Source: a virus. Taken from it: a stretch of 64,000 bases of DNA. Positions 9,631-20,229 of the stretch are shown piece after piece. The first letter of the stretch is position 1, and each line of letters begins with the position of its first letter. Below the pieces are notes generated by a model, which was not told where the DNA came from, ran no database searches, and saw only the letters and a list, made by a program, of their open reading frames with translations. The translations under genes and the position numbers were made by a program. Where the stretch lies: IMG/VR virus record IMGVR_UViG_3300023240_000010, one strand, 5' to 3'.

Positions 9631-10305
9631 TTAAGCGTGTATATCTTCAATAACCCAATCTTGTAGACCTAAAGACATCTCTGATCGATCTAATACGAAA
9701 GCGATTGTCATACGTATTCCGCTTTCACCATTACGTGCTGTATGATATACTAGTTTATCAGATCCATCTTCGTATGCGCCGAAGTGTCCTGCCTTACACT
9801 GCCATCCTTTAACATCAGGAATGTGAATCATCTTCTGATTGACTGGATCCCAATGCTTCCACCAACCATCGCCTGTTTCACTGTATGTAAATATAAAGTT
9901 ATATGCTGAAGCATTAGCATTGTTATGCCAAGAGATATAACCGCCAGGTGGATACACCGAGAACAGAGCATTCTTTTTAAGATTGAATGCAGTCTGTACA
10001 TTAGTCATCAACCTACTATGATGATCAGCAACTTCTGCTATCTTTCTATCAATATGTGGGTTATGAGGATCAAACCTATAACCTTGATTGAATGAATAAC
10101 TAGTAACAAAAGCAGGGAACCCATCGTGTCCTCTGCCCTCACTCTTAATCTGCTCAAAGTATTCTTGACCAGTATACCAATCTGCTTTGTCTAAATCATT
10201 TATCTTAGAAGGAATAACCGCACTATAGTTCTCTTGCTTAGTAAACCACAATGCCTCATTCAAAAGATCGATTGCGTAATCATTAAGTGGTATATTTTTC
10301 ATCAT
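9631..10305 (-). CDS. Fe(II)/2-oxoglutarate oxygenase-like (DSBH) protein with an atypical H-x-N motif
   Basis: YPPGGYISWHNN...LVYHTA...RMTIAFV follows the HxD...H...R layout with Asn at the Asp position. Confidence 0.65.
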   Translation of the reverse strand: MMKNIPLNDYAIDLLNEALWFTKQENYSAVIPSKINDLDKADWYTGQEYFEQIKSEGRGHDGFPAFVTSYSFNQGYRFDPHNPHIDRKIAEVADHHSRLMTNVQTAFNLKKNALFSVYPPGGYISWHNNANASAYNFIFTYSETGDGWWKHWDPVNQKMIHIPDVKGWQCKAGHFGAYEDGSDKLVYHTARNGESGIRMTIAFVLDRSEMSLGLQDWVIEDIHA

Positions 10306-10307
10306 AT

Positions 10308-11063
10308 TTAAAAATCCAGTTGCTTTGCTCCAGAAGAAGAATAGTGTCTCAATACGACAGGATCCTTGTTATGCTCATATTTATATTTGGAATAAAAGTT
10401 CCACCGAGCATCGTCTTCTAGTATACCAACTTTCAAATCTTTGTACTTGGGTTCTTTGTTAACTAACCACCACAATGAGAATTGATCCCATCTCTTCAGA
10501 GTAGCAGGATAATTTTCTAAGTCTTCTGTTCCATCTGCTTTCATTGGCCACCACGTTCTGCCATATTGTGCGACAGTTAGATCGTACCAGTCTTGCATGA
10601 ATTCACGAACTAAAGGTTTGCGCATATCATATAGACAAACACCACCACATAATTCGAATCCTGCTTTAGTGCCGTCAGGTTTTCTTGCACCTTCGAAGAA
10701 CACTTCAGCATAGCAGTAATGTCTATCAGCAGGTAAACCAGTAAACATCAAATCATGTCCATCTAGTTTATCAAAGATGGTTGCAATATCTTCGTGTTCA
10801 CATTCTATATCAGCATCGACATAAAATGTAATATCATATGGAGACTTTGCCATACCAATCAGTTTTGCTCTAGCATGGTTATCACAGAATATAACATTGT
10901 CTGCAATTCTTTCTTGTCCGTCAAGAAATCTTTCTTCTACTACAAATGTAATCTGTGCTTCGGGATAATAATCTTTAATCGACTCCATCAAGTTAATGGC
11001 AGAAACATAAAAGAACTTCTTTCGTGATGCTACAATAACATAACCTTTAGTCGGTTCGCTCAT
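10308..11063 (-). CDS. GT-A fold glycosyltransferase (GT8/mannosyltransferase-like)
   Basis: GYVIVAS, RAKLIGMAKSPYDITFYVDAD (DxD), GGVCLY, WDQFSLW, RWNF, terminal HYS. Start moved to MSEPTK (11063), which overlaps the upstream stop. Confidence 0.75.
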   Translation of the reverse strand: MSEPTKGYVIVASRKKFFYVSAINLMESIKDYYPEAQITFVVEERFLDGQERIADNVIFCDNHARAKLIGMAKSPYDITFYVDADIECEHEDIATIFDKLDGHDLMFTGLPADRHYCYAEVFFEGARKPDGTKAGFELCGGVCLYDMRKPLVREFMQDWYDLTVAQYGRTWWPMKADGTEDLENYPATLKRWDQFSLWWLVNKEPKYKDLKVGILEDDARWNFYSKYKYEHNKDPVVLRHYSSSGAKQLDF

Positions 11064-11520
11064 CTTCATCTGCCTTTTTAAAATAACCAAGTTCGGTGCC
11101 AATAACCAATGCTGCCAAGGCATTCATTTCAATAACATTCTTTGCTCTACGTAGTCTGGAACGCAACTCACGATTTGTTGAGTTCTTAATCGTATCTATT
11201 TCGAATGCTTGTAGTTTGGCATTAAAGAGTTGTTCAAGTTCATGAGATTTTTTACGCTGTTCGTGAATAGCACGTTTCTCGCGATCCTCTTTCTCTTTCT
11301 TATCTTTGCGCTCTTGAGTATTAGCGTCGATCTTATCCATACCCCATTGTGCAATAACTGCTTTGAACTGATCACACTCTCTACCGTCAGGTAAAATCTT
11401 ACGTAGTTCAAGAACATCTTTCTTTCTACCGCCTGATGGAATAGGACTTAGACGAATACATTTAAGTATCGTCTTTTCTTCATTTTCCCAATATCCATTA
11501 TCTAAAAATTCCACTGTCAT
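11047..11520 (-). CDS. Hypothetical protein (charged, helical), coupled to the giant Tyr-rich gene
   Basis: 157-aa ORF; TAATG overlap with the upstream gene at 11518-11522; C-terminal LFNAKLQAFEI..IKNS.NRELRSRLRRAK. Confidence 0.7.
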   Translation of the reverse strand: MTVEFLDNGYWENEEKTILKCIRLSPIPSGGRKKDVLELRKILPDGRECDQFKAVIAQWGMDKIDANTQERKDKKEKEDREKRAIHEQRKKSHELEQLFNAKLQAFEIDTIKNSTNRELRSRLRRAKNVIEMNALAALVIGTELGYFKKADEDERTD

Positions 11521-14500
11521 TATGCTACCCTTACATATAATGTGTATGTTTCAATCTGTACTGGATTAGCAAGCAACTTGCCACCAACACCATATAAAAT
11601 AGATGTTTGATAATCTATTGTGTAATCTTGCGTGTATGTTCCGATGTAGTTAGTGTCTTCATAATTCTCTAATACTTCTACATCTTGATAATCTGAAGTA
11701 TAGTCCGTAGAATAATCAACATCATCATAACTTGAAACATAAGTTTCAGAAACATCTGCGCCTTCAAATGTATCTATATAGTTGCCTAAGTACACATCCT
11801 CTTGATAGTCTACTGAGTAGTCTGTATCATAAGTCTGTTCAATATAGTCAACAGTGTAAGACTCGTCAACTGCATTAGCATCATAAGTGCCTGTGTAGTT
11901 TCCAGCATATAGTGTTGAGTACGAAGGAGTATAGTCGCCAAGATAATCACCAACATAAGTTAGTGTGTAGTTTGACTCATAGTCTCCTGCGTAAGTAGTG
12001 CCGTAATCACCAGCATAAGTTGAATCGAAACCGCCTTCGTAGACTCCATCAAATCCTTGCAAGAAATCACCAGCATAAACTGATTCGTAAGTTCCTTCGT
12101 AGATCGTGTTGTAATCACCTAAGTAATTGCCTTCGAAGTCAACAAGATAATCAGTTGTGTAATCTGAAATATAGTTGCCTTCGTATTCGATATCGTCATA
12201 GGTCGAAACATAGTTGCCGAGATAGTTTTGCTCTTCATAAACACCGCTATAGTCTGTGACGTAATCACCACTATAGTCTCCAACATAATCACTAACATAG
12301 TTTCCTACATATACTTGATCGTCGTATGCAGTTTCATAAGTTGAAGTGTATTGACCAATGAAGTCGCCGATATAAAGACTAACATAGTTGCCTGCGTAAT
12401 CAATGTCATCATAGTTAGAAGTGTATTCACTTGCATATGTTGTAAGATATTCTGTCTCGTAGAACCCAGAATAAGTTGCTGTGTAAGGACTCTGATAATC
12501 ACCGGTGTAATCTGTGTTGTAGAAACCTGTGTAATCTGTTTCGAAGTCACTAACATAGTTTCCTGCGTAATCAATATCATCATACTCACCAGTATACTGC
12601 GCGACGAATGTTGATTCGTACTGATTAAGATAGTTTGAATCATATGTTCCTGCGTAGATCGCACCATCATAATCAGTGGTGTATACAGTAGCATAATCAG
12701 ATATATAATCACCATCATATGCAGTACCATAAGTGCCTGCATAGTTCTCTTGGAAGTCTCCCTCGTATCCAGAATCGTAATCAGAGATATAATCGTCCGA
12801 GTACTGTGAGATATAATCGCCAGCATATATGTCAGAAATATACACATCGGTAAAGTTGCCCGCATAATTCTCGGTGAAGTTACCATCATATGTTGAAATG
12901 TAAGCAGAGACATAGTTGCCGTCATACTGTGACGCATATGATCCTTCGTACTGAGTAAGGTATTGTCCTTCGTAAGTCTCAACATATCCAGAGATATAAT
13001 CGCCCAAATAGTCAACTAAGAATGCGCCTTCATAATCTGTGATATAACCTGTGCCATAAGTGCCGGTGAAGTTACCATCATATGTTCCAATAAATGATTC
13101 TTGGAAAGCACCTTCGTAAACAGAGATATAGTCGCCATCATATGTGTCAACATAATCAGAAGCATAGGTTCCTTCGAAGTTAGCAGAGAAGTCGCTTTCG
13201 TATGCTGAACCGTAATCTCCTAGGAAAGTTCCAAGATACTCTGAGTCATACGTACCTTCATATTGCTCTTGAAAGGCACCATCATAAGATGACAAGTATT
13301 GTGAAACATAAGTGTCGATGTAATCTACGTTATAAGTTCCAGTAAATGTAGCAGTAAACTCACTCTCATATTGACTTGAATACTCGCCTGTGTAATCATC
13401 AGTATACGATCCTTCGAAGTCACCTTGATATTGAGTGATGAAGTTTGATTGGTATTGAGAAACGTAATCAGATGTGTAAGTTTCAATGTAGTCTGAGACG
13501 TAGTTGCCTTCATATGTTGCACCAAATGCGCCTTCATATTCAGATAGATACTCGCCTACGAATGTTCCAATATATTGTGCGCTAAACTGAGCGCCAAAGT
13601 TGGCAGCAAAGTTACCTTCATATGATGCTACATAGTTTCCTAGGAATGTGCCGAGATACTGTGCGCTAAAGTCGCCGGTGTATACTACAGCAAAACTGCC
13701 TTCATACTGAGAAACATAGTTTCCTTCGAATGTTCCGAGATAATCAGTTGCGTAAGTTCCCGCGAAAGATTGAGCGAACGATCCTTCGTACTGAGACGCA
13801 TAGTCTCCGTCGAATGTTCCGAGATAGTTAACACCAAACTGACCAGTGAAGTTTTGTGAGAATCCGCCTTCGTACTGTGACGCATAGTCTCCGTCGAATG
13901 TTCCTATATACTGCGATACATATTGGGTTGCGAAGTTTGCCGCAAAAGATCCGGTGTACTGTGTAGCATAATTTGCGTTGAAGGTTCCTAAATAGTTTGC
14001 AGTAAACTGTTGATCTTGCACACGCTCATACGCACCGAGATATTGAGAAAGGTAATCGCCTTCGAATGTTCCAATATATTGTGCGTTAAATGTCTCGTTC
14101 TGCGCACGTTCATATAGTCCTACGTAGGCAGAGTCGAAACTACCTTCGAATGTTGGAATATAGTTAGCAGAGAAGTTCTCGTTCTGCGCACGTTCATATA
14201 GTCCTGCGTATTGACCAGTATAACCACCAGTATATGTTCCATCATAGTTTGCAGTGAATTGCTCGTCCTGCGCACGTTCATATAGTCCAGTGTATTGACC
14301 AGTATAGTTACCTATGAATGTTCCTAGATAATCAGATGCATAGTTCGCAGCATCGTCTCGATCATATACACCAAGATATTGTCCCAGGTATTGACCAATA
14401 TAGTCGCCTAAATAGTCAGAAGTTCTTGTCTGATTCTGCGCACGTTGATAACCACCAGCATATTGCCCAACATAATCACCTTCGAATGTTCCCGTATAGT

Positions 14501-17500
14501 TTGCGGTGAACTGCTCTTGTACATCACCTTGATATGCACCAGTGTATACGCCAAGATATTGTCCTGTGTAAGTACCTTCAAAGACTGCTGTACGAGTTTC
14601 ATTCTGCGCACGTTCATATAGTCCTACATAACCGCCAGTATATTGTCCAGTAAAGTTACCTTCATAAGTTGCACTTCGTGTGGTATTCTCTGCACGTTCA
14701 TAACCACCAGTATATCCACCGGTGTATGATTGTTGAATACCCTCTTGAGTGGTCTGTGATATAACTTCCTGAGCAGTTCGTTCATAACCGCCAGTATATC
14801 CACCAGTGTAAACACCAGTATATTGACCAGAGTATTGTCCTGTGTATGTTCCACCTCCGACAGCATAATTTGTCGTAGTCGGAGAGTTGGCAATTACACC
14901 GACTTGCCAACCACTATTTGCAGGAAACGCTGATGGAGGTTGTCCGAATGGGGACCAAGTCAAAGTACTCACTGGGCCATTAGCGCCAGTCCATGTAAAT
15001 GCAGTTCCATAATAATTGTTGGCATAAGTGGCAGAGGCGCGGAGGAATGTATAACCGTTCCTATCAGCAGTTGTACCATATGCCGGCGCACCGCTCACCG
15101 GCGCGCCGGAACCTGAACCGTACCACCAAATTATTATACCATACCAACTATTTCTCTGAGTAGTGCTAAGTGCTGATGTAAATGTCAGTGTTACGTATGG
15201 CCCCGGTGCCACCCCAAATGACTCATTCTTAGTTAACGCATGAACGGTAGCATTTATAGGAGACCAATAGGTATCTGCCATACTATTGCCGGCGGACTGG
15301 TTACCGCCAGAATAACCCGAAGGAGTTGGGTTAAAACCTATAGAATATTGGGTAAGGTAAAGGTTTGTATAATAACCTGTCACCATTGTTGTCGAGTCGG
15401 TGTAATTGTTGCCCGTATAGTTGACAGTGCTAGTGAATGACTCATTAGTTGACTGTGTTATTGCTTCAGAAATACCAGTCTGTTGTGTCTCTTGTACTTG
15501 ACCAGTATATCCACCTTGATATCCACCAGTGTATCCACCAGTGTAAGTACCGGTGTAAGTAGACTGTATAGTCTCTTGTACTTGACCAATATATTGTCCT
15601 GTGTAAGCGGCGACATAATTTGCAGCAAAGGTTTCGTTAATAGCAGTTTGTTGTGTCTCCGAGATTTGACCAATATATTGTCCTACAAAGTTGCCTGTGT
15701 AGTTCTCCTGAATTACCTCGTTAACACCATCAGTAATGTTCTCAGACTGTATGCGAGTATAACCACCAGTAAATTGTGTAGCATAGTCTGCTCTATCGTA
15801 TGATCCTTGGAAAGTTTCATTAATGCTTTCGCCCACAACACCAGTATATTGTCCTGTGTATGCTGCCTGATAACTTCCTCGCTCGAAAGATCCTGTAAAC
15901 AATTCATTGATACTTTCTCCTACACCACCAACATAATTGCCTGTAAATTGTGTGTTGTAGTTTTGTCTATCGTAGTTTTCAGCATTAACTGTGTCTAGGT
16001 TTTCAGAAATCTGTCCTGTGTATTGTCCCGTAAACTGTGTCGCATATTGTCCGCGGTCAAAAGATTCTTGGTTAGTAGTGTTCTCACTCTCGCCAATCTG
16101 TCCTACATATTGTCCTGTGAAGGTCGAAGTATAGATTCCGCCATCATAATTACCAGTATATGATACATTCTCAGTTTGTCCTACCTGACCAACATATTGT
16201 CCAGTATATTGAGATGCATAGTCTAGTCTATCATACGATCCTAAGAATGTTGCGCTGAAAGACTCTGGTACACCACCAGTATAACCACCGGTAAATTGTG
16301 TAGCGTAGTCTATTCTATCATACGATGCTAGATAATTAGCAGTAAATGCGCCTTCATAATCACCTGTATAAATTTGCTCATACTCTCGCGTATATGATGC
16401 GCGGTCATACGTACCCAAGAAGGTTGCAGTGAAAGCACCACTATAATCGCCTGTGTATATGCCTTCGTACTGTGTGAGATAATTAGCACGATCATAAGCA
16501 CCCTGAAATGATGCTGTAAAGTTACCTAAATAATCGCCCGAGTAAACAGTTTCAAATTCGTTTGTATAGTTTGTACTATCATATGTTCCTAAGAATGTTG
16601 CATTGAAAGCACCACTATAGTTACCGGTGTAGTCAACAGTAAAGTTCGAAATATAACCTGAACTATCATAGTCGCCTAAGTAGTCTGTATTGTATAGACC
16701 AATATAGTTTCCGGTATAAGTTGCAGCAAATTGAGTCTCGTATGCTTGACTATCATATTCACCCGAGAAGGTTGCGCTGAATGATCCTGTGTATGAACTT
16801 GCGTATGATGATATATAATCACCCGCATATGTTCCAGCATCATAATTCGCTGTGAAGGATGCACTAAAATCAGAAACATAATCTGTAGCATACTGCGCTG
16901 TGAATATAGAAGTGTATGCAGAACCCGCAAAAGAGGCAGCGAATTGACCAGTGAACTGACCAACATAGTTACCTAAATAGTCCGACTCGAATGCACCAAC
17001 GTAAGGAATACCGTCGAAACTGGCAGCAAAGTTCTGACTGAATGTTCCGATGTAATCACCGATATAAGATGAATCATATACTGATAGGTACGTAGTGCTA
17101 TCGTACTCGCCAATAAAGGATGCTGTGAATAATCCTGAGTACTCGCCAGTATAAGTTGTTTCGAACTCAGCGATATATGCTTGAGCATCATAAACACTTA
17201 CATAAGCAGAATCGTAATTGCCAAGATAATCGCCAACATAAGTTTCTTCGTATGTTGATATGTAATCTGTGCCTTGATAATCTGTAGCATATTCTGTATT
17301 GTATAGACCAATATAGTTGCCAACATATTGACTAGCATAGTTGCCTTGATACTCGACTCCATCAAATACACCAGTGTATAGTGTTTCAAATTGTCCACCA
17401 TATTCACTCTCATAAGTTGAAACATAATCAGAAACATATTCAGTGCCATCATAAGGCGAGATATAATCACCAAGATAATCTGATATGTAATCACCAGTAT

Positions 17501-19964
17501 AGATGCCAGTATATTCTACAGTATAGTCTGTTGAGTACTGCGCTTCATAATTACCAGAGTAGGTAGAAATATATTCTCCACCATAATCGCCTACATATAC
17601 TGTTTCGAACTCATCAGTGTATTGTGAAAGATAGTTTCCTGCATATACATTCTCATATCCAGCATCAAAGGTTGCTGTATAATCTGTCTCGAATCCGCCA
17701 ACATATACAGCATCAAACTGAGTAGTATAATTTGTTTCGTACTCTCCAGCATATGTTCCGAGATAATCGCTGATGTAATCACCAGCGTATAAATTTGTGT
17801 AAACACCTTCAAAGGCAGTTTCATAATCAGCAACAAAGTTGCCCTCATATGCCACTTCATCATACTCGCCTTCATATTGTGTAATATAGTCAGTTGTATA
17901 ATCCGACTCATATCCACTTGCATATGTTCCTAGATAATCACTGATGTAATCACCAAGATAGTTCTCTGCGAACTGACCTTCGTATTGTGAGTCGTAATCT
18001 GTTAGATATGTTCCAAGATAATCAGCAGTGAAGTCTCCAGCGTAAGTTGCTTGAAAGTCTCCTTCGTAGGAGTTATCATATACACCCTCATAACTTGCGC
18101 CGTAATCGCCTAGATAATCACCGTCATAAGTTCCAAGATAGTTACTGATGTAATCGCTGGTATAATCAGTAATGTAGTTTCCTGTGTATACATCATCGAT
18201 ATAGTTCGAGATATAGTTGCCAAGATATTCAGTCTGGAATCCACCAAGATAATCTGAAACATAGTTGCCTACATACTCTGTGCCAGAATAATCTGAAAGA
18301 TATGTGTTTGTGTAATCACTGATATAGTCTGTGTTGTAATCACTGATATAGTTACCAGTGTAATCAACAGATTCGTAGTCACTAGCATACTGTTCAATAA
18401 CAGCATCAGCATCATATGTGTTTTCATAATCACTAATGTAATCGGTGCCATCATAAGTAGGCACGTATTGATTAACGTAATCACCGAGATAGTTTTGTGT
18501 GTATTCTGTATTGTAATCGCCGAGGTAGTTCTGTGTGTAGTCACCCAGATAATCGCCATCGTATGTTGGAGTATATGAACCAGTATAATCACCGTCATAT
18601 GTTCCTAAGTATTCACCAGCAAATTCACCACTATATGTTGGTTCATAGTTGCCAGTATAAGTTGCTTCATAGTCGCCGAGATAGTCTTCTGTATACTGAG
18701 CAGTGTAAGTTTCTAGTGCTTGATAACCTGTATCATAATAGTATTCAAGTCTAGTATCAATTGCACTACCACGTGCTACCCATGTACCAGTATCTGTCGG
18801 TCGACCTTGAGTCGCTGAACGTAATTGATATTTACCAATACCAGTAGTTTCGACCGCTTTCTTTACTCGCTCACCAAACGTGAACTCTACTTCTGCATCG
18901 CTATGTTGTCTTAGTCCTGCCCATCCATTCTGAGCATTACGTGCAATATAAAGAGGTCTAATTACAGCAGGTTTAATGCCTGCTTGTCTGATCCATATAG
19001 AATAAGGTATAACAGTTCCATCGCCACGTGTGTCATTAAATACACTAGGAATAAACTGTACCCAATCAGCGCCAGGACTGTTCGCACTTAGACGATACGT
19101 ACCAGGCAACTCGTCTCGCATGATACGTATGACCAACTCTTCGCAAAATGCGTCAAGTTCTGCGTCATTCATCTCCTTAACACCGTTGGGCGTTAATGCT
19201 CTGCTCCAATATAATGGATTTTTCTTTAATGCACTAGTAGTATTAATAGGTTGTGATGCTGTTGTTACTTGATAAAGATCAGTCTGAACACCTATAGACT
19301 CCGGTGGTAAGGTCTCTTCGATTTCAATAGTAGGGAATACAATACTAGTGTTAGCAGTTTGTTTAGTTGTGTTTTGAACGTCAGTAGAGTTGGCAGTTAA
19401 AGTGAAGTTTAAAAGACCTACTTGAGTTGCTTTGATTTCGAATGTTGATTGATATGATCCTGAAAGACCACCGACAGTACTGAAGTCTTCCCACTCAACT
19501 CTTGTTCCATCAACTGAGTTAGCAGTAGGGGTTGTAGTAACGCCTTCGTTATCAAATAGTGCATCACCAGATACTGAAAGTTCGTGTCCGATCTCTTCAA
19601 ATCCAGTTACTGCGTCACCATTTACAACAACATAAACTGTATCGCCGACATATAGAGGAGACGGCATCTCACCCTGTGCGGTGAATATTGCGGTGTGTAT
19701 ACCAGTGCCAGGATTTGATCTATGTTCAACAGTGAAATTGACTGTGTAAAATGTGCCTGGTGTATCACCGACAGAGGTTTCGAAGAAGGTGTCGGTGAAA
19801 GTGCCGACAGCAGTTGCTCCACTACTCGTAGTAGTCAGAGCAGAAACATCGACATTGGTCATTTTTCCAAGATGTACTCCCGCCTGATACGCCAGATAAT
19901 CTATATCGAGCGTAGCGAGTTCTTGAAGTGCACCAGTTGCTAGGTGTTTTAACGGTAAGGACAT
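11520..19964 (-). CDS. Giant acidic Tyr-periodic repeat protein, probably a virion fibre
   Basis: 2814-aa ORF with a ~405-aa globular N-terminus, two ~1100-aa arms with Y/F every fourth residue, a central unique domain and a short C-terminal ETYTLYVRVA strand; TATAAATA upstream. Confidence 0.85.
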   Translation of the reverse strand: MSLPLKHLATGALQELATLDIDYLAYQAGVHLGKMTNVDVSALTTTSSGATAVGTFTDTFFETSVGDTPGTFYTVNFTVEHRSNPGTGIHTAIFTAQGEMPSPLYVGDTVYVVVNGDAVTGFEEIGHELSVSGDALFDNEGVTTTPTANSVDGTRVEWEDFSTVGGLSGSYQSTFEIKATQVGLLNFTLTANSTDVQNTTKQTANTSIVFPTIEIEETLPPESIGVQTDLYQVTTASQPINTTSALKKNPLYWSRALTPNGVKEMNDAELDAFCEELVIRIMRDELPGTYRLSANSPGADWVQFIPSVFNDTRGDGTVIPYSIWIRQAGIKPAVIRPLYIARNAQNGWAGLRQHSDAEVEFTFGERVKKAVETTGIGKYQLRSATQGRPTDTGTWVARGSAIDTRLEYYYDTGYQALETYTAQYTEDYLGDYEATYTGNYEPTYSGEFAGEYLGTYDGDYTGSYTPTYDGDYLGDYTQNYLGDYNTEYTQNYLGDYVNQYVPTYDGTDYISDYENTYDADAVIEQYASDYESVDYTGNYISDYNTDYISDYTNTYLSDYSGTEYVGNYVSDYLGGFQTEYLGNYISNYIDDVYTGNYITDYTSDYISNYLGTYDGDYLGDYGASYEGVYDNSYEGDFQATYAGDFTADYLGTYLTDYDSQYEGQFAENYLGDYISDYLGTYASGYESDYTTDYITQYEGEYDEVAYEGNFVADYETAFEGVYTNLYAGDYISDYLGTYAGEYETNYTTQFDAVYVGGFETDYTATFDAGYENVYAGNYLSQYTDEFETVYVGDYGGEYISTYSGNYEAQYSTDYTVEYTGIYTGDYISDYLGDYISPYDGTEYVSDYVSTYESEYGGQFETLYTGVFDGVEYQGNYASQYVGNYIGLYNTEYATDYQGTDYISTYEETYVGDYLGNYDSAYVSVYDAQAYIAEFETTYTGEYSGLFTASFIGEYDSTTYLSVYDSSYIGDYIGTFSQNFAASFDGIPYVGAFESDYLGNYVGQFTGQFAASFAGSAYTSIFTAQYATDYVSDFSASFTANYDAGTYAGDYISSYASSYTGSFSATFSGEYDSQAYETQFAATYTGNYIGLYNTDYLGDYDSSGYISNFTVDYTGNYSGAFNATFLGTYDSTNYTNEFETVYSGDYLGNFTASFQGAYDRANYLTQYEGIYTGDYSGAFTATFLGTYDRASYTREYEQIYTGDYEGAFTANYLASYDRIDYATQFTGGYTGGVPESFSATFLGSYDRLDYASQYTGQYVGQVGQTENVSYTGNYDGGIYTSTFTGQYVGQIGESENTTNQESFDRGQYATQFTGQYTGQISENLDTVNAENYDRQNYNTQFTGNYVGGVGESINELFTGSFERGSYQAAYTGQYTGVVGESINETFQGSYDRADYATQFTGGYTRIQSENITDGVNEVIQENYTGNFVGQYIGQISETQQTAINETFAANYVAAYTGQYIGQVQETIQSTYTGTYTGGYTGGYQGGYTGQVQETQQTGISEAITQSTNESFTSTVNYTGNNYTDSTTMVTGYYTNLYLTQYSIGFNPTPSGYSGGNQSAGNSMADTYWSPINATVHALTKNESFGVAPGPYVTLTFTSALSTTQRNSWYGIIIWWYGSGSGAPVSGAPAYGTTADRNGYTFLRASATYANNYYGTAFTWTGANGPVSTLTWSPFGQPPSAFPANSGWQVGVIANSPTTTNYAVGGGTYTGQYSGQYTGVYTGGYTGGYERTAQEVISQTTQEGIQQSYTGGYTGGYERAENTTRSATYEGNFTGQYTGGYVGLYERAQNETRTAVFEGTYTGQYLGVYTGAYQGDVQEQFTANYTGTFEGDYVGQYAGGYQRAQNQTRTSDYLGDYIGQYLGQYLGVYDRDDAANYASDYLGTFIGNYTGQYTGLYERAQDEQFTANYDGTYTGGYTGQYAGLYERAQNENFSANYIPTFEGSFDSAYVGLYERAQNETFNAQYIGTFEGDYLSQYLGAYERVQDQQFTANYLGTFNANYATQYTGSFAANFATQYVSQYIGTFDGDYASQYEGGFSQNFTGQFGVNYLGTFDGDYASQYEGSFAQSFAGTYATDYLGTFEGNYVSQYEGSFAVVYTGDFSAQYLGTFLGNYVASYEGNFAANFGAQFSAQYIGTFVGEYLSEYEGAFGATYEGNYVSDYIETYTSDYVSQYQSNFITQYQGDFEGSYTDDYTGEYSSQYESEFTATFTGTYNVDYIDTYVSQYLSSYDGAFQEQYEGTYDSEYLGTFLGDYGSAYESDFSANFEGTYASDYVDTYDGDYISVYEGAFQESFIGTYDGNFTGTYGTGYITDYEGAFLVDYLGDYISGYVETYEGQYLTQYEGSYASQYDGNYVSAYISTYDGNFTENYAGNFTDVYISDIYAGDYISQYSDDYISDYDSGYEGDFQENYAGTYGTAYDGDYISDYATVYTTDYDGAIYAGTYDSNYLNQYESTFVAQYTGEYDDIDYAGNYVSDFETDYTGFYNTDYTGDYQSPYTATYSGFYETEYLTTYASEYTSNYDDIDYAGNYVSLYIGDFIGQYTSTYETAYDDQVYVGNYVSDYVGDYSGDYVTDYSGVYEEQNYLGNYVSTYDDIEYEGNYISDYTTDYLVDFEGNYLGDYNTIYEGTYESVYAGDFLQGFDGVYEGGFDSTYAGDYGTTYAGDYESNYTLTYVGDYLGDYTPSYSTLYAGNYTGTYDANAVDESYTVDYIEQTYDTDYSVDYQEDVYLGNYIDTFEGADVSETYVSSYDDVDYSTDYTSDYQDVEVLENYEDTNYIGTYTQDYTIDYQTSILYGVGGKLLANPVQIETYTLYVRVA
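13400..14700 (-). repeat. Coding tandem repeats with 84-nt (28-aa) period
   Basis: tgcgcacgttcatatagtcc recurs at 14101, 14185, 14269 and 14605 (multiples of 84). A near-identical ~34-nt block occurs near 13788 and 13872. Confidence 0.9.
15740..17200 (-). repeat. Coding tandem repeats with 87-nt (29-aa) period
   Basis: Consecutive 29-aa units, e.g. YDSTTYLSVYDSSYIGDYIGTFSQNFAAS and YDRANYLTQYEGIYTGDYSGAFTATFLGT. Confidence 0.85.
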
Positions 19965-19995: not shown

Positions 19996-20003
19996 TATTT
20001 ATA
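19996..20003 (-). promoter_or_regulatory. T4-type late promoter TATAAATA for the giant Tyr-rich gene
   Basis: tatttata at 19996-20003, 32 nt upstream of the ATG at 19964. Confidence 0.85.
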
Positions 20004-20229
20004 TGCTTCTGGAAAGCAATAATGCGAGAGCGTCCTTTATTTCACACATATCTTTCTGAAGCGTTTCTACTGTTTTCACTAAGTCTGTCTGATCTTTTTG
20101 TTGTTGTCCTCTTATTTTTTTCTGTCTCTGGGCAAGTTCGATCTCGTGAGCATTTACGTTTATTAACGCATTAGACTCCATATCTCGAACTAACCCAGGA
20201 ACACCCTCTACTTTGACGTAGCGCGACAT
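19999..20229 (-). CDS. Small conserved T4-like protein (coiled-coil C-terminus)
   Basis: MSRYVKVEGVPGLVRDMESNALIN...; start moved to 20229 (TAATG overlap with the upstream gene). Confidence 0.7.
   Translation of the reverse strand: MSRYVKVEGVPGLVRDMESNALINVNAHEIELAQRQKKIRGQQQKDQTDLVKTVETLQKDMCEIKDALALLLSRSI

Follow-up and report, generated by a model that had tools for sequence, protein, structure and literature searches.

Phage fibres determine which host is infected, and they are largely unannotated in the abundant uncultured T4-like phages of the sea. The stretch of viral DNA analysed here (IMG/VR record IMGVR_UViG_3300023240_000010, 64,000 nucleotides; below, the window) is part of a T4-like myovirus, with genes for gp25, gp6, a wedge protein, DUF4815 and a tail-fibre protein. 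Its minus strand also encodes a highly repetitive protein of 2814 amino acids (aa), P0001. It is quite probable that P0001 is a virion fibre of this uncultured marine myovirus, in which the chain runs out along one repetitive arm and back along a second, with the domain between the arms as the distal tip. A preliminary description of the window had proposed such a fold-back. The proposal is supported, chiefly by insertions in relatives that are matched in mirror order between the two arms and that carry equal numbers of aromatic rungs.

The open reading frame (ORF) given in the preliminary description, 11520-19964, was verified as open. The parts of the gene, all on the minus strand, are as follows:

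11520..19964, minus strand: fibre gene P0001, 2814 aa; open throughout and kept in relatives of 2926-3509 aa
18750..19964, minus strand: N-terminal domain, aa 1-405; family-defining, putative anchor/base domain (alignment A1)
19275..19772, minus strand: insert in the N-terminal domain, aa ~65-230; long members only
15495..18749, minus strand: arm 1, aa 406-1490; [YF]-x-[GSA]-[DNTQ] tetrads with 25 five-residue steps
15645..17507, minus strand: 29-residue superrepeat array of arm 1, aa ~820-1440; unit of 7 rungs plus one five-residue step (YDRxxY)
14850..15494, minus strand: central non-periodic domain, aa 1491-1705; rich in W, G, N and P
11610..14849, minus strand: arm 2, aa 1706-2785; the same tetrads with 11 five-residue steps
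12975..14816, minus strand: 28-residue superrepeat array of arm 2, aa ~1717-2330; unit of 7 rungs, one of them aromatic-free (YERAQNExF)
11523..11609, minus strand: C-terminal linker and strand, aa 2786-2814, ending IETYTLYVRVA; near-invariant in the family
11520-11522, minus strand: stop codon of P0001

Mirror-Matched Length Changes in Relatives

Close relatives of P0001 (87-92% identity in the N-terminal domain) were obtained from IMG/VR and JGI contigs. The complete genes among them encode proteins of 2926 aa (L088), 3508 aa (L087) and 3509 aa (P0156, at L086:290-10819). From L088 to L087, which are 91% identical, arm 1 gains +170, +32, +32 and +58 aa at 281, 384, 435 and 565 aa from the base, and arm 2 gains +172, +32, +32 and +56 aa at 283, 427, 483 and 582 aa from the C-terminal motif, a net gain of +292 aa per arm. 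Between P0001 and L088 the difference is +32 and +32 aa per arm, located 370-419 aa from the base. The comparison of P0001 with P0156 gives blocks of 170, 32, 96 and 58 aa in arm 1 and of 172, 32, 96 and 56 aa in arm 2, with totals of 356 and 356 aa.

The partner insertions contain the same number of aromatic rungs (42/42, 8/8, 24/24 and 14/14) despite their unequal residue counts. The partners of 42 rungs measure 170 aa with two five-residue steps and 172 aa with four; those of 14 rungs measure 58 aa (2 x 29, with two five-residue steps) and 56 aa (2 x 28). The last pair, with 14 aromatics each, is what the preliminary description would predict from its idea of a regular bulge, and a five-residue step that acts as a bulge fits these data because rung counts are equal where residue counts differ. 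The sequences of partner blocks are unrelated, so the blocks arose as separate events. Independent duplications with equal rungs at facing positions would be hard to explain unless the arms lie antiparallel, rung to rung. The matched insertions thus amount to a natural experiment, which points to two chain halves that face each other and to a length that evolves by an equal-rung rule.

Equal arms in homologues of differing length had also been anticipated, and this was borne out in P0001, L088, L087 and P0156, with arm 1/arm 2 lengths of 1085/1101, 1150/1165, 1442/1457 and 1442/1457 aa. Arm 2 exceeds arm 1 by a constant 15-16 aa over a change of 357 aa per arm, and the centre of the tip lies 7 aa off the midpoint in all four proteins of this clade. 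Identity between P0001 and P0156 is 0.85-0.96 at either end and drops symmetrically to 0.43 in the middle. Among close relatives the central domain has diverged most, with 43-52% identity compared with 85-96% at the base. A rougher match was obtained for P0071 and P0073, with +16 and +42 against +50 and +16. P0003 and P0004 have identical arms, and the difference between them is an insertion of 114 aa on the border of the central region; the pair is therefore no test of compensation. Alignments of other pairs, with <60% identity in the fibre region, are too noisy for scoring.

Repeat Pattern of the Arms

The preliminary description had reported Tyr or Phe at every fourth residue, in strongly acidic arms that almost lack K, H, C, W and M. 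On counting, the distance from one Tyr/Phe to the next is 4 in 432 cases and 5 in 39. Each of the five residues makes up 0.0% of both arms, with D plus E at ~15-16%, Y at 17-18%, G at 12% and R at ~1%. Within a tetrad, position 0 is Y or F (100%), position 1 is T, L, E, A, I or V, position 2 is G (45-49%) or S, A or T, and position 3 is D, N, T or Q. By a simple run definition the periodic runs extend over residues 410-1486 in arm 1 (1077 aa) and 1707-2785 in arm 2 (1079 aa), and the number of tetrad rungs is ~263 in arm 1 and ~266 in arm 2. The central domain, with its non-periodic part at residues 1491-1703, is centred at residue 1597; the point halfway from the end of the N-terminal domain to the C-terminal motif is residue 1604. 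The N-terminal domain closes with a conserved motif, GIGxYQLRS..QG.PT..GTW..RG.A.DTR (alignment A1).

The superperiods of 29 aa in arm 1 and 28 aa in arm 2 were recovered, with self-identity at lag 29 reaching 0.46 (aa ~820-1400) and at lag 28 reaching 0.45 (aa ~1660-2290). The five-residue steps also lie where they had been placed, with those of the YDRxxY type near the tip in arm 1 and all those of arm 2 (YDDIDY, YDDQVY and others) towards the C-terminus. The proposed mirroring of composition about the centre is real but coarse, as the windowed correlation is +0.16 to +0.25 in mirror order versus -0.09 in direct order, and a BLOSUM dot-plot of one arm against the other has merely a faint antidiagonal trend. 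Aromatic-free rungs and Phe rungs return with a period of 7 rungs in each arm, and those of the two arms line up when the mirror register is shifted by 1 rung (r = 0.52). The coincidence agrees with paired superrepeats, but it holds modulo the 7-rung period and cannot fix the register. A DNA palindrome as the origin of the symmetry was ruled out: there are 0 inverted repeats in the DNA, and the symmetry therefore belongs to the protein. The repeat is also not collagen-like (G-X-Y, glycine at every third residue), as its period is 4 and Gly occupies position 2 in 45-49% of tetrads.

A Family of Bracketed Periodic Proteins

Searches with the whole of P0001 gave zero matches in Pfam (E<=1) and PHROGs (E<=0.1), and the N-terminal and central domains were likewise without a match there. 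Judged by profile matches, P0001 belongs to a family that lacks any Pfam or PHROG entry and is defined here. The profile of the N-terminal domain built from alignment A1 matched at least 433 cluster representatives (clusters at 50% identity) at E<=1e-3 and 208 at E<=1e-30. Among the best 150 members, ~100 are complete, with lengths of 318-4046 aa, and end in ETYTLYVR[IVT][AS]. The conserved N-terminal domain and the ten-residue C-terminus of complete members therefore bracket a body of nearly any length. P0001 has each of the family features, namely the N-terminal motif GIGxYQLRS..QG.PT..GTW..G.A.DT[RK], ETYTLYVR followed by 2 residues, a body of period 4 and a centred insert. Period 4 is universal in the family, and the 28/29-residue superperiod is confined to part of P0001 and missing in many members. 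The aa ~65-230 insert is missing in short members and in phage C48C1 and is gapped for P0006 in alignment A1; in most short members the profile matches start at about position 225. The ETYTLYVR motif is not invariably the very C-terminus, because P0005 carries ~280 aa, and P0010 and P0011 ~30 aa, beyond it.

The centred position of the insert extends beyond the P0001 clade. In 97 complete members the centre of mass of the non-periodic residues lies at a mean of 0.500 (standard deviation 0.071), and inserts sit closer to the centre than they do in block-shuffled controls (z = -5.9, for sequences that are related and so non-independent). The N-arm and C-arm are often nearly equal in length (113/116, 110/110, 230/236 and 268/259). 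In short members the turn between the arms comprises only ~12-20 residues. The pattern is unambiguous in the 540-aa TARA protein P0073 (arms of 113 and 116 aa), which consists, between its termini, of TFE-type tetrads, GNPxIxY octads, an 18-residue turn, GNPxIxY octads and TFE-type tetrads again. In the short members P0044, P0134 and P0055, arm 1 is Arg-rich (YTRDRTQNF) and arm 2 Asp/Glu-rich (GDYIGDY). Such charge complementarity in several short members would fit pairing of the arms; it is not seen in P0001, both arms of which are acidic.

The central domain of P0001 had no homologue among proteins under 1547 aa. In a features search of the Atlas no score exceeded 0.88; one lectin-like cluster among the matches is a weak lead.

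Structure Predictions

Full-length P0073 was modelled with AlphaFold2 from a 52-sequence alignment. The N-terminal domain reached a predicted local distance difference test score (pLDDT) of 90-98. A 27-residue strand (255-281) leads from the conserved GTW motif into the first three tetrads, with the pLDDT falling outward from 91 to 67. A 29-residue strand (510-538) comprises the last three tetrads through ETYTLYVR, with the pLDDT rising from 66 to 97 toward the C-terminus. The C-terminal strand equivalent to that of P0001 has a pLDDT of 87-97. The preliminary description had the C-terminal strand return to the base, and this fits the model, which places a confident C-terminus (pLDDT to 97) beside a confident N-terminal domain. 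Judged from the pLDDT values alone, the pattern is what pairing of the C-terminal strand with the first strand at the base would be expected to give.

ESM Atlas models of viral proteins of 340-392 aa align across residues 1-540 of the P0073 model. Foldseek searches with the model returned nothing at E<=0.001 in the PDB and BFVD. The best matches of VIA-align were MABP / MACPF-associated beta-prism structures (8b6v, 2qp2, 3tow and 6sb1), with Z of 5.0-5.8 over 111-120 residues, which is below the level of trust. These structure searches thus gave no convincing known fold for the N-terminal domain, and a phmmer search of an arm fragment against the PDB returned noise only. In a three-copy complex prediction of P0071:252-420, run without controls, the ipSAE was 0.00 and the fold of the partner was uncertain, an outcome that speaks neither for nor against.

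Proposed Architecture

The comparative evidence and the homologue model give good support to an intramolecular out-and-back shaft with a distal central domain and a C-terminal strand that closes on the N-terminal domain. The chain would exit the N-terminal domain, run out along arm 1, form a domain of ~215 residues at the far end, and come back along arm 2. The two arms would lie antiparallel, rung against rung, and the loop would be closed at the N-terminal domain, where the invariant C-terminal strand would dock next to the strand that begins arm 1. With the chain running out along arm 1 and returning along arm 2, the central domain would be the distal tip and, as such, the likely host-binding part. 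A receptor-binding role of the tip and attachment to the baseplate through the N-terminal domain are speculative. If they are correct, annotators of these phages should seek host-range determinants in the middle of the gene and not at its 3' end.

There is moderate support for a more specific picture of extended strands, in which the face bearing Y/F and G/S/A is buried and the polar/acidic face points outward in a six-stranded trimeric needle. Each tetrad would place Tyr/Phe and a small residue (Gly/Ser/Ala) on one face of the strand and a beta-former and a polar or acidic residue on the other. The aromatic face is most likely buried, probably because three hairpins join into the six-stranded needle. 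Five-residue steps would act as bulges, which add one residue and no rung. The number of rungs would set the length of the shaft and evolve through tandem duplication or deletion of repeat blocks, and such changes may survive only if both arms shift by equal rungs at facing positions. The length of ~350 nm suggested for P0001 is speculative and would be an upper bound that assumes fully extended strands.

We tentatively put forward, as a possibility, that this is a new fibrous architecture, a needle of a 'tyrosine-ladder' type that is free of metal. Each chain would be a single immense beta-hairpin, and probably three chains would bury their alternating Tyr/Gly faces around an axis. If so, the shaft would be tunable from ~10 nm to several hundred nm through rung insertions matched in both arms, and the longest rigid single-protein appendages of phages would include P0001 (~265 rungs) and its relatives, which reach 4046 aa. 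Such fibres may act as long-reach host-capture lines in dilute seawater. An extended hairpin needle would matter for the ecology of marine viruses, since how far a virion reaches affects how often it meets rare hosts. It would also be a new way of building rods, of interest for structural biology and for the engineering of fibres of programmable length.

Several observations weigh against the out-and-back fibre. The AlphaFold2 model of the tip-centred fragment P0001:1300-1921, made from a single sequence, was uninformative (mean pLDDT 32). In the P0073 model the arms are unplaced (pLDDT ~33) and without secondary structure, with extended beta geometry modelled for just the first and last 2-3 tetrads. 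L092 and L094 (95% identity) show a length difference of 166 aa (40 rungs) for arm 1 and of 189 aa (47 rungs) for arm 2, and their gaps were aligned at unequal distances from the base. Under crude segmentation the arms are asymmetric in L095 (630/717), P0081 (562/39) and P0101 (44/217), and members such as P0002 and C48C1 contain several globular inserts. Mirror composition was rejected as a family-wide property, as the mean mirror correlation is ~0 over 102 proteins; mirror exceeds direct correlation in 74/102 proteins, an excess for which a distinct centre alone can account. The two arms of P0001 are both strongly acidic, and charges that are neither screened nor directed outward would work against close pairing.

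Alternative Explanations

The fold-back topology could be correct and the arms nevertheless compact, as beta-solenoids with coils of 28/29 residues or as a spiral of G-D/N turns, lying side by side in a fibre several-fold shorter than 350 nm. The superperiod is a typical solenoid coil length, G-[DN] at tetrad positions 2-3 readily makes turns, AlphaFold2 gave no strands for the arms, and matched insertions and deletions demand just that the arms lie side by side. We regard such arms as unlikely, since the superperiod occurs only in part of P0001 and many members are without it, whereas the period of 4 is universal. Moreover, the matched insertions of 8, 14 and 42 rungs are not multiples of one coil, and the first and last tetrads of P0073 were modelled as long straight strands. 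It is also conceivable, but very improbable, that arm 1 of one chain pairs antiparallel with arm 2 of another. The resulting rod would span the full length of the repeats, with a junction of N-terminal domain and C-terminal strand at either end and the central domains halfway along. An antiparallel dimer predicts mirror-matched length changes and equal arms just as well, and a monomer model cannot tell whether the C-terminal strand docks in cis or in trans. To our knowledge, known phage fibres are polar, and two identical ends would be unsuited to a baseplate appendage. The turns of only ~12-20 residues in short members, and a central domain that evolves fastest, as would an exposed distal tip, likewise argue for pairing within one chain.

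Most solved phage fibres are parallel trimers, and a conventional parallel fibre might accordingly be assumed, with the N-terminal domain at the baseplate, the ETYTLYVR strand as a distal trimerisation or folding nucleus like the foldon of T4 fibritin, and a coincidental mirror pattern. The short invariant C-terminal element is indeed foldon-like. Such a fibre seems to us highly improbable, as it cannot explain insertions matched in size, rungs and mirror order in three comparisons. Nor does it account for the constant arm difference of 15-16 aa, for the centred inserts, or for a C-terminal strand that is placed with confidence in a model with unplaced arms. The low pLDDT of the arms and their extreme composition would suit disordered low-complexity sequence without defined pairing, for example a sticky Tyr-rich tether. 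The probability of disorder is close to negligible, because a strict 4-residue phase is held over >1000 residues with clear position-specific preferences and length changes are matched rung for rung, and disordered regions show none of these features.

Comparison with Known Fibres

Among known systems, P0001 comes closest to the short needle of the T4 long tail fibre protein gp37 (PDB 2XGF). The gp37 needle has ~130 residues and holds iron ions on HxH motifs, whereas the arms of P0001 contain 0.0% His. The arms of P0001, at ~1080 residues, are ~16 times longer, are built on a 4-residue aromatic repeat and would form the whole shaft and not the tip alone. The collar domain D10 of gp37 is formed by residues 811-881 and 1010-1026, with the C-terminus next to the point from which the needle sets out (PMC6957217). 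The residues that bind the receptor are variable and lie in mid-sequence, and G921 in the stem packs on F970 of a neighbouring chain (PMC6957217). The chain of gp37 thus goes out to a receptor-binding tip and then back, and the comparative evidence and the homologue model suggest the same for P0001. The preliminary description had called P0001 unlike canonical parallel trimeric fibres, which needs qualifying in that the chain of the gp37 needle also returns (PMC6957217). Among the likenesses we also list that gp37 requires dedicated chaperones. Pfam and PHROGs searches, and the search of the PDB with an arm fragment, gave no sequence relation of P0001 to gp37, gp12 or collar families, and on these results P0001 is not a member of the gp37 needle family. 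An atlas of 16 tail-fibre classes includes T4-like needle tips and has no class of fibres folded back over their whole length (PMC12143355).

Trimeric rods with short repeats are well known from the C-terminal triple beta-helix of T4 gp5 (VxGxxxxx octapeptide) and the triple beta-spiral of the adenovirus fibre, in which glycine and hydrophobic positions recur. Their chains are parallel and run one way, with repeats of 8 or ~15 residues. They differ from P0001 in that mirror-matched changes of two arms are not expected of parallel one-way chains. The halves of such a chain never face each other, and P0001 departs from this, given its mirror-matched insertions with equal rungs. In 1998 Merkel and Regan reportedly described aromatic-glycine cross-strand pairing in antiparallel beta-sheets as 'aromatic rescue of glycine'. 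By analogy, the alternation of Y/F with G/S/A on one strand face of P0001 would be the pattern for such pairing if the facing strands were offset by two residues. The pairing is known as a local stabiliser in globular proteins and not as the principle of a 1000-residue ribbon.

The sole match of the family among 50,697 deposited phage records was CDS0201 of phage C48C1 (OQ984149, Kyanoviridae), a 'hypothetical protein' of 3347 aa. It shares with P0001 the N-terminal domain, the terminal ETYTLYVRVA and an aromatic body of period 4, and its locus shares the downstream gene of ~150 aa and the next two downstream genes. It differs in that its repeats are basic (Arg alternating with Tyr/Phe) and in that several globular domains are inserted in its second half.

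Genomic Setting and Neighbouring Genes

Upstream of P0001 lie gp25-like, gp6-like and wedge genes and the gene for a 1798-aa DUF4815 (VrlC-like) protein. Downstream are small ORFs and a 1647-aa tail-fibre protein, followed farther on by tube cap, hub/lysozyme and gp32 genes. The gene order around P0001 is identical in two related lineages. In related marine phages the block after VrlC is a hypervariable host-recognition cluster (PMC7029224), and the P0001 gene, directly after the baseplate wedge genes and the VrlC-like DUF4815 gene, would open this block. The immediate neighbours of P0001 are as follows:

19999-20229, minus strand: 76-aa coiled-coil-like ORF between the DUF4815 gene and P0001
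11047..11520, minus strand: 157-aa K/E/R-rich protein, probably helical; its ATG overlaps the stop codon of P0001 (TAATG)
10308-11123, minus strand: 271-aa gene kept downstream; 60% identity to the C48C1 counterpart; YVDAD motif
9631-10305, minus strand: 224-aa gene kept downstream; 36% identity to the C48C1 counterpart; GHDG...WHNN...YHTA histidines

ORFs with 35-37% identity to the 157-aa protein lie behind the family gene in a TARA contig (L002:1901-2335) and, in phage C48C1, at L001:21815-22276. L086 and L088 likewise have an ORF of this size after the family gene (157 aa, again with a 1-nucleotide overlap), as does L094 (149 aa, 4-nucleotide overlap). The charged gene of ~150 aa was thus present at the five loci examined, which is a count of loci and not a family-wide census. 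Its product is a candidate assembly factor or chaperone, or a stoichiometric partner of the fibre.

The 271-aa protein gave a sub-threshold match to Glycos_transf_2 in Pfam (E 0.089), and the histidines of the 224-aa protein hint at the fold of a metal-dependent oxygenase. Profile searches of Pfam and the PDB left the glycosyltransferase and oxygenase identities unconfirmed. If the two proteins are real enzymes, they might modify the Tyr-rich fibre. The 76-aa ORF has 39% identity to a 76-aa ORF of C48C1 annotated as 'virion structural protein'. With regard to the host, psbA was not found in four partial relatives and one complete relative that carry the family. On contig Ga0208814_1000005 (308,986 bp; L093 and L096) the same fibre gene, for 2478 aa, is present in two copies ~154 kb apart, which suggests that this contig is a two-unit concatemer of a phage genome of ~154 kb.

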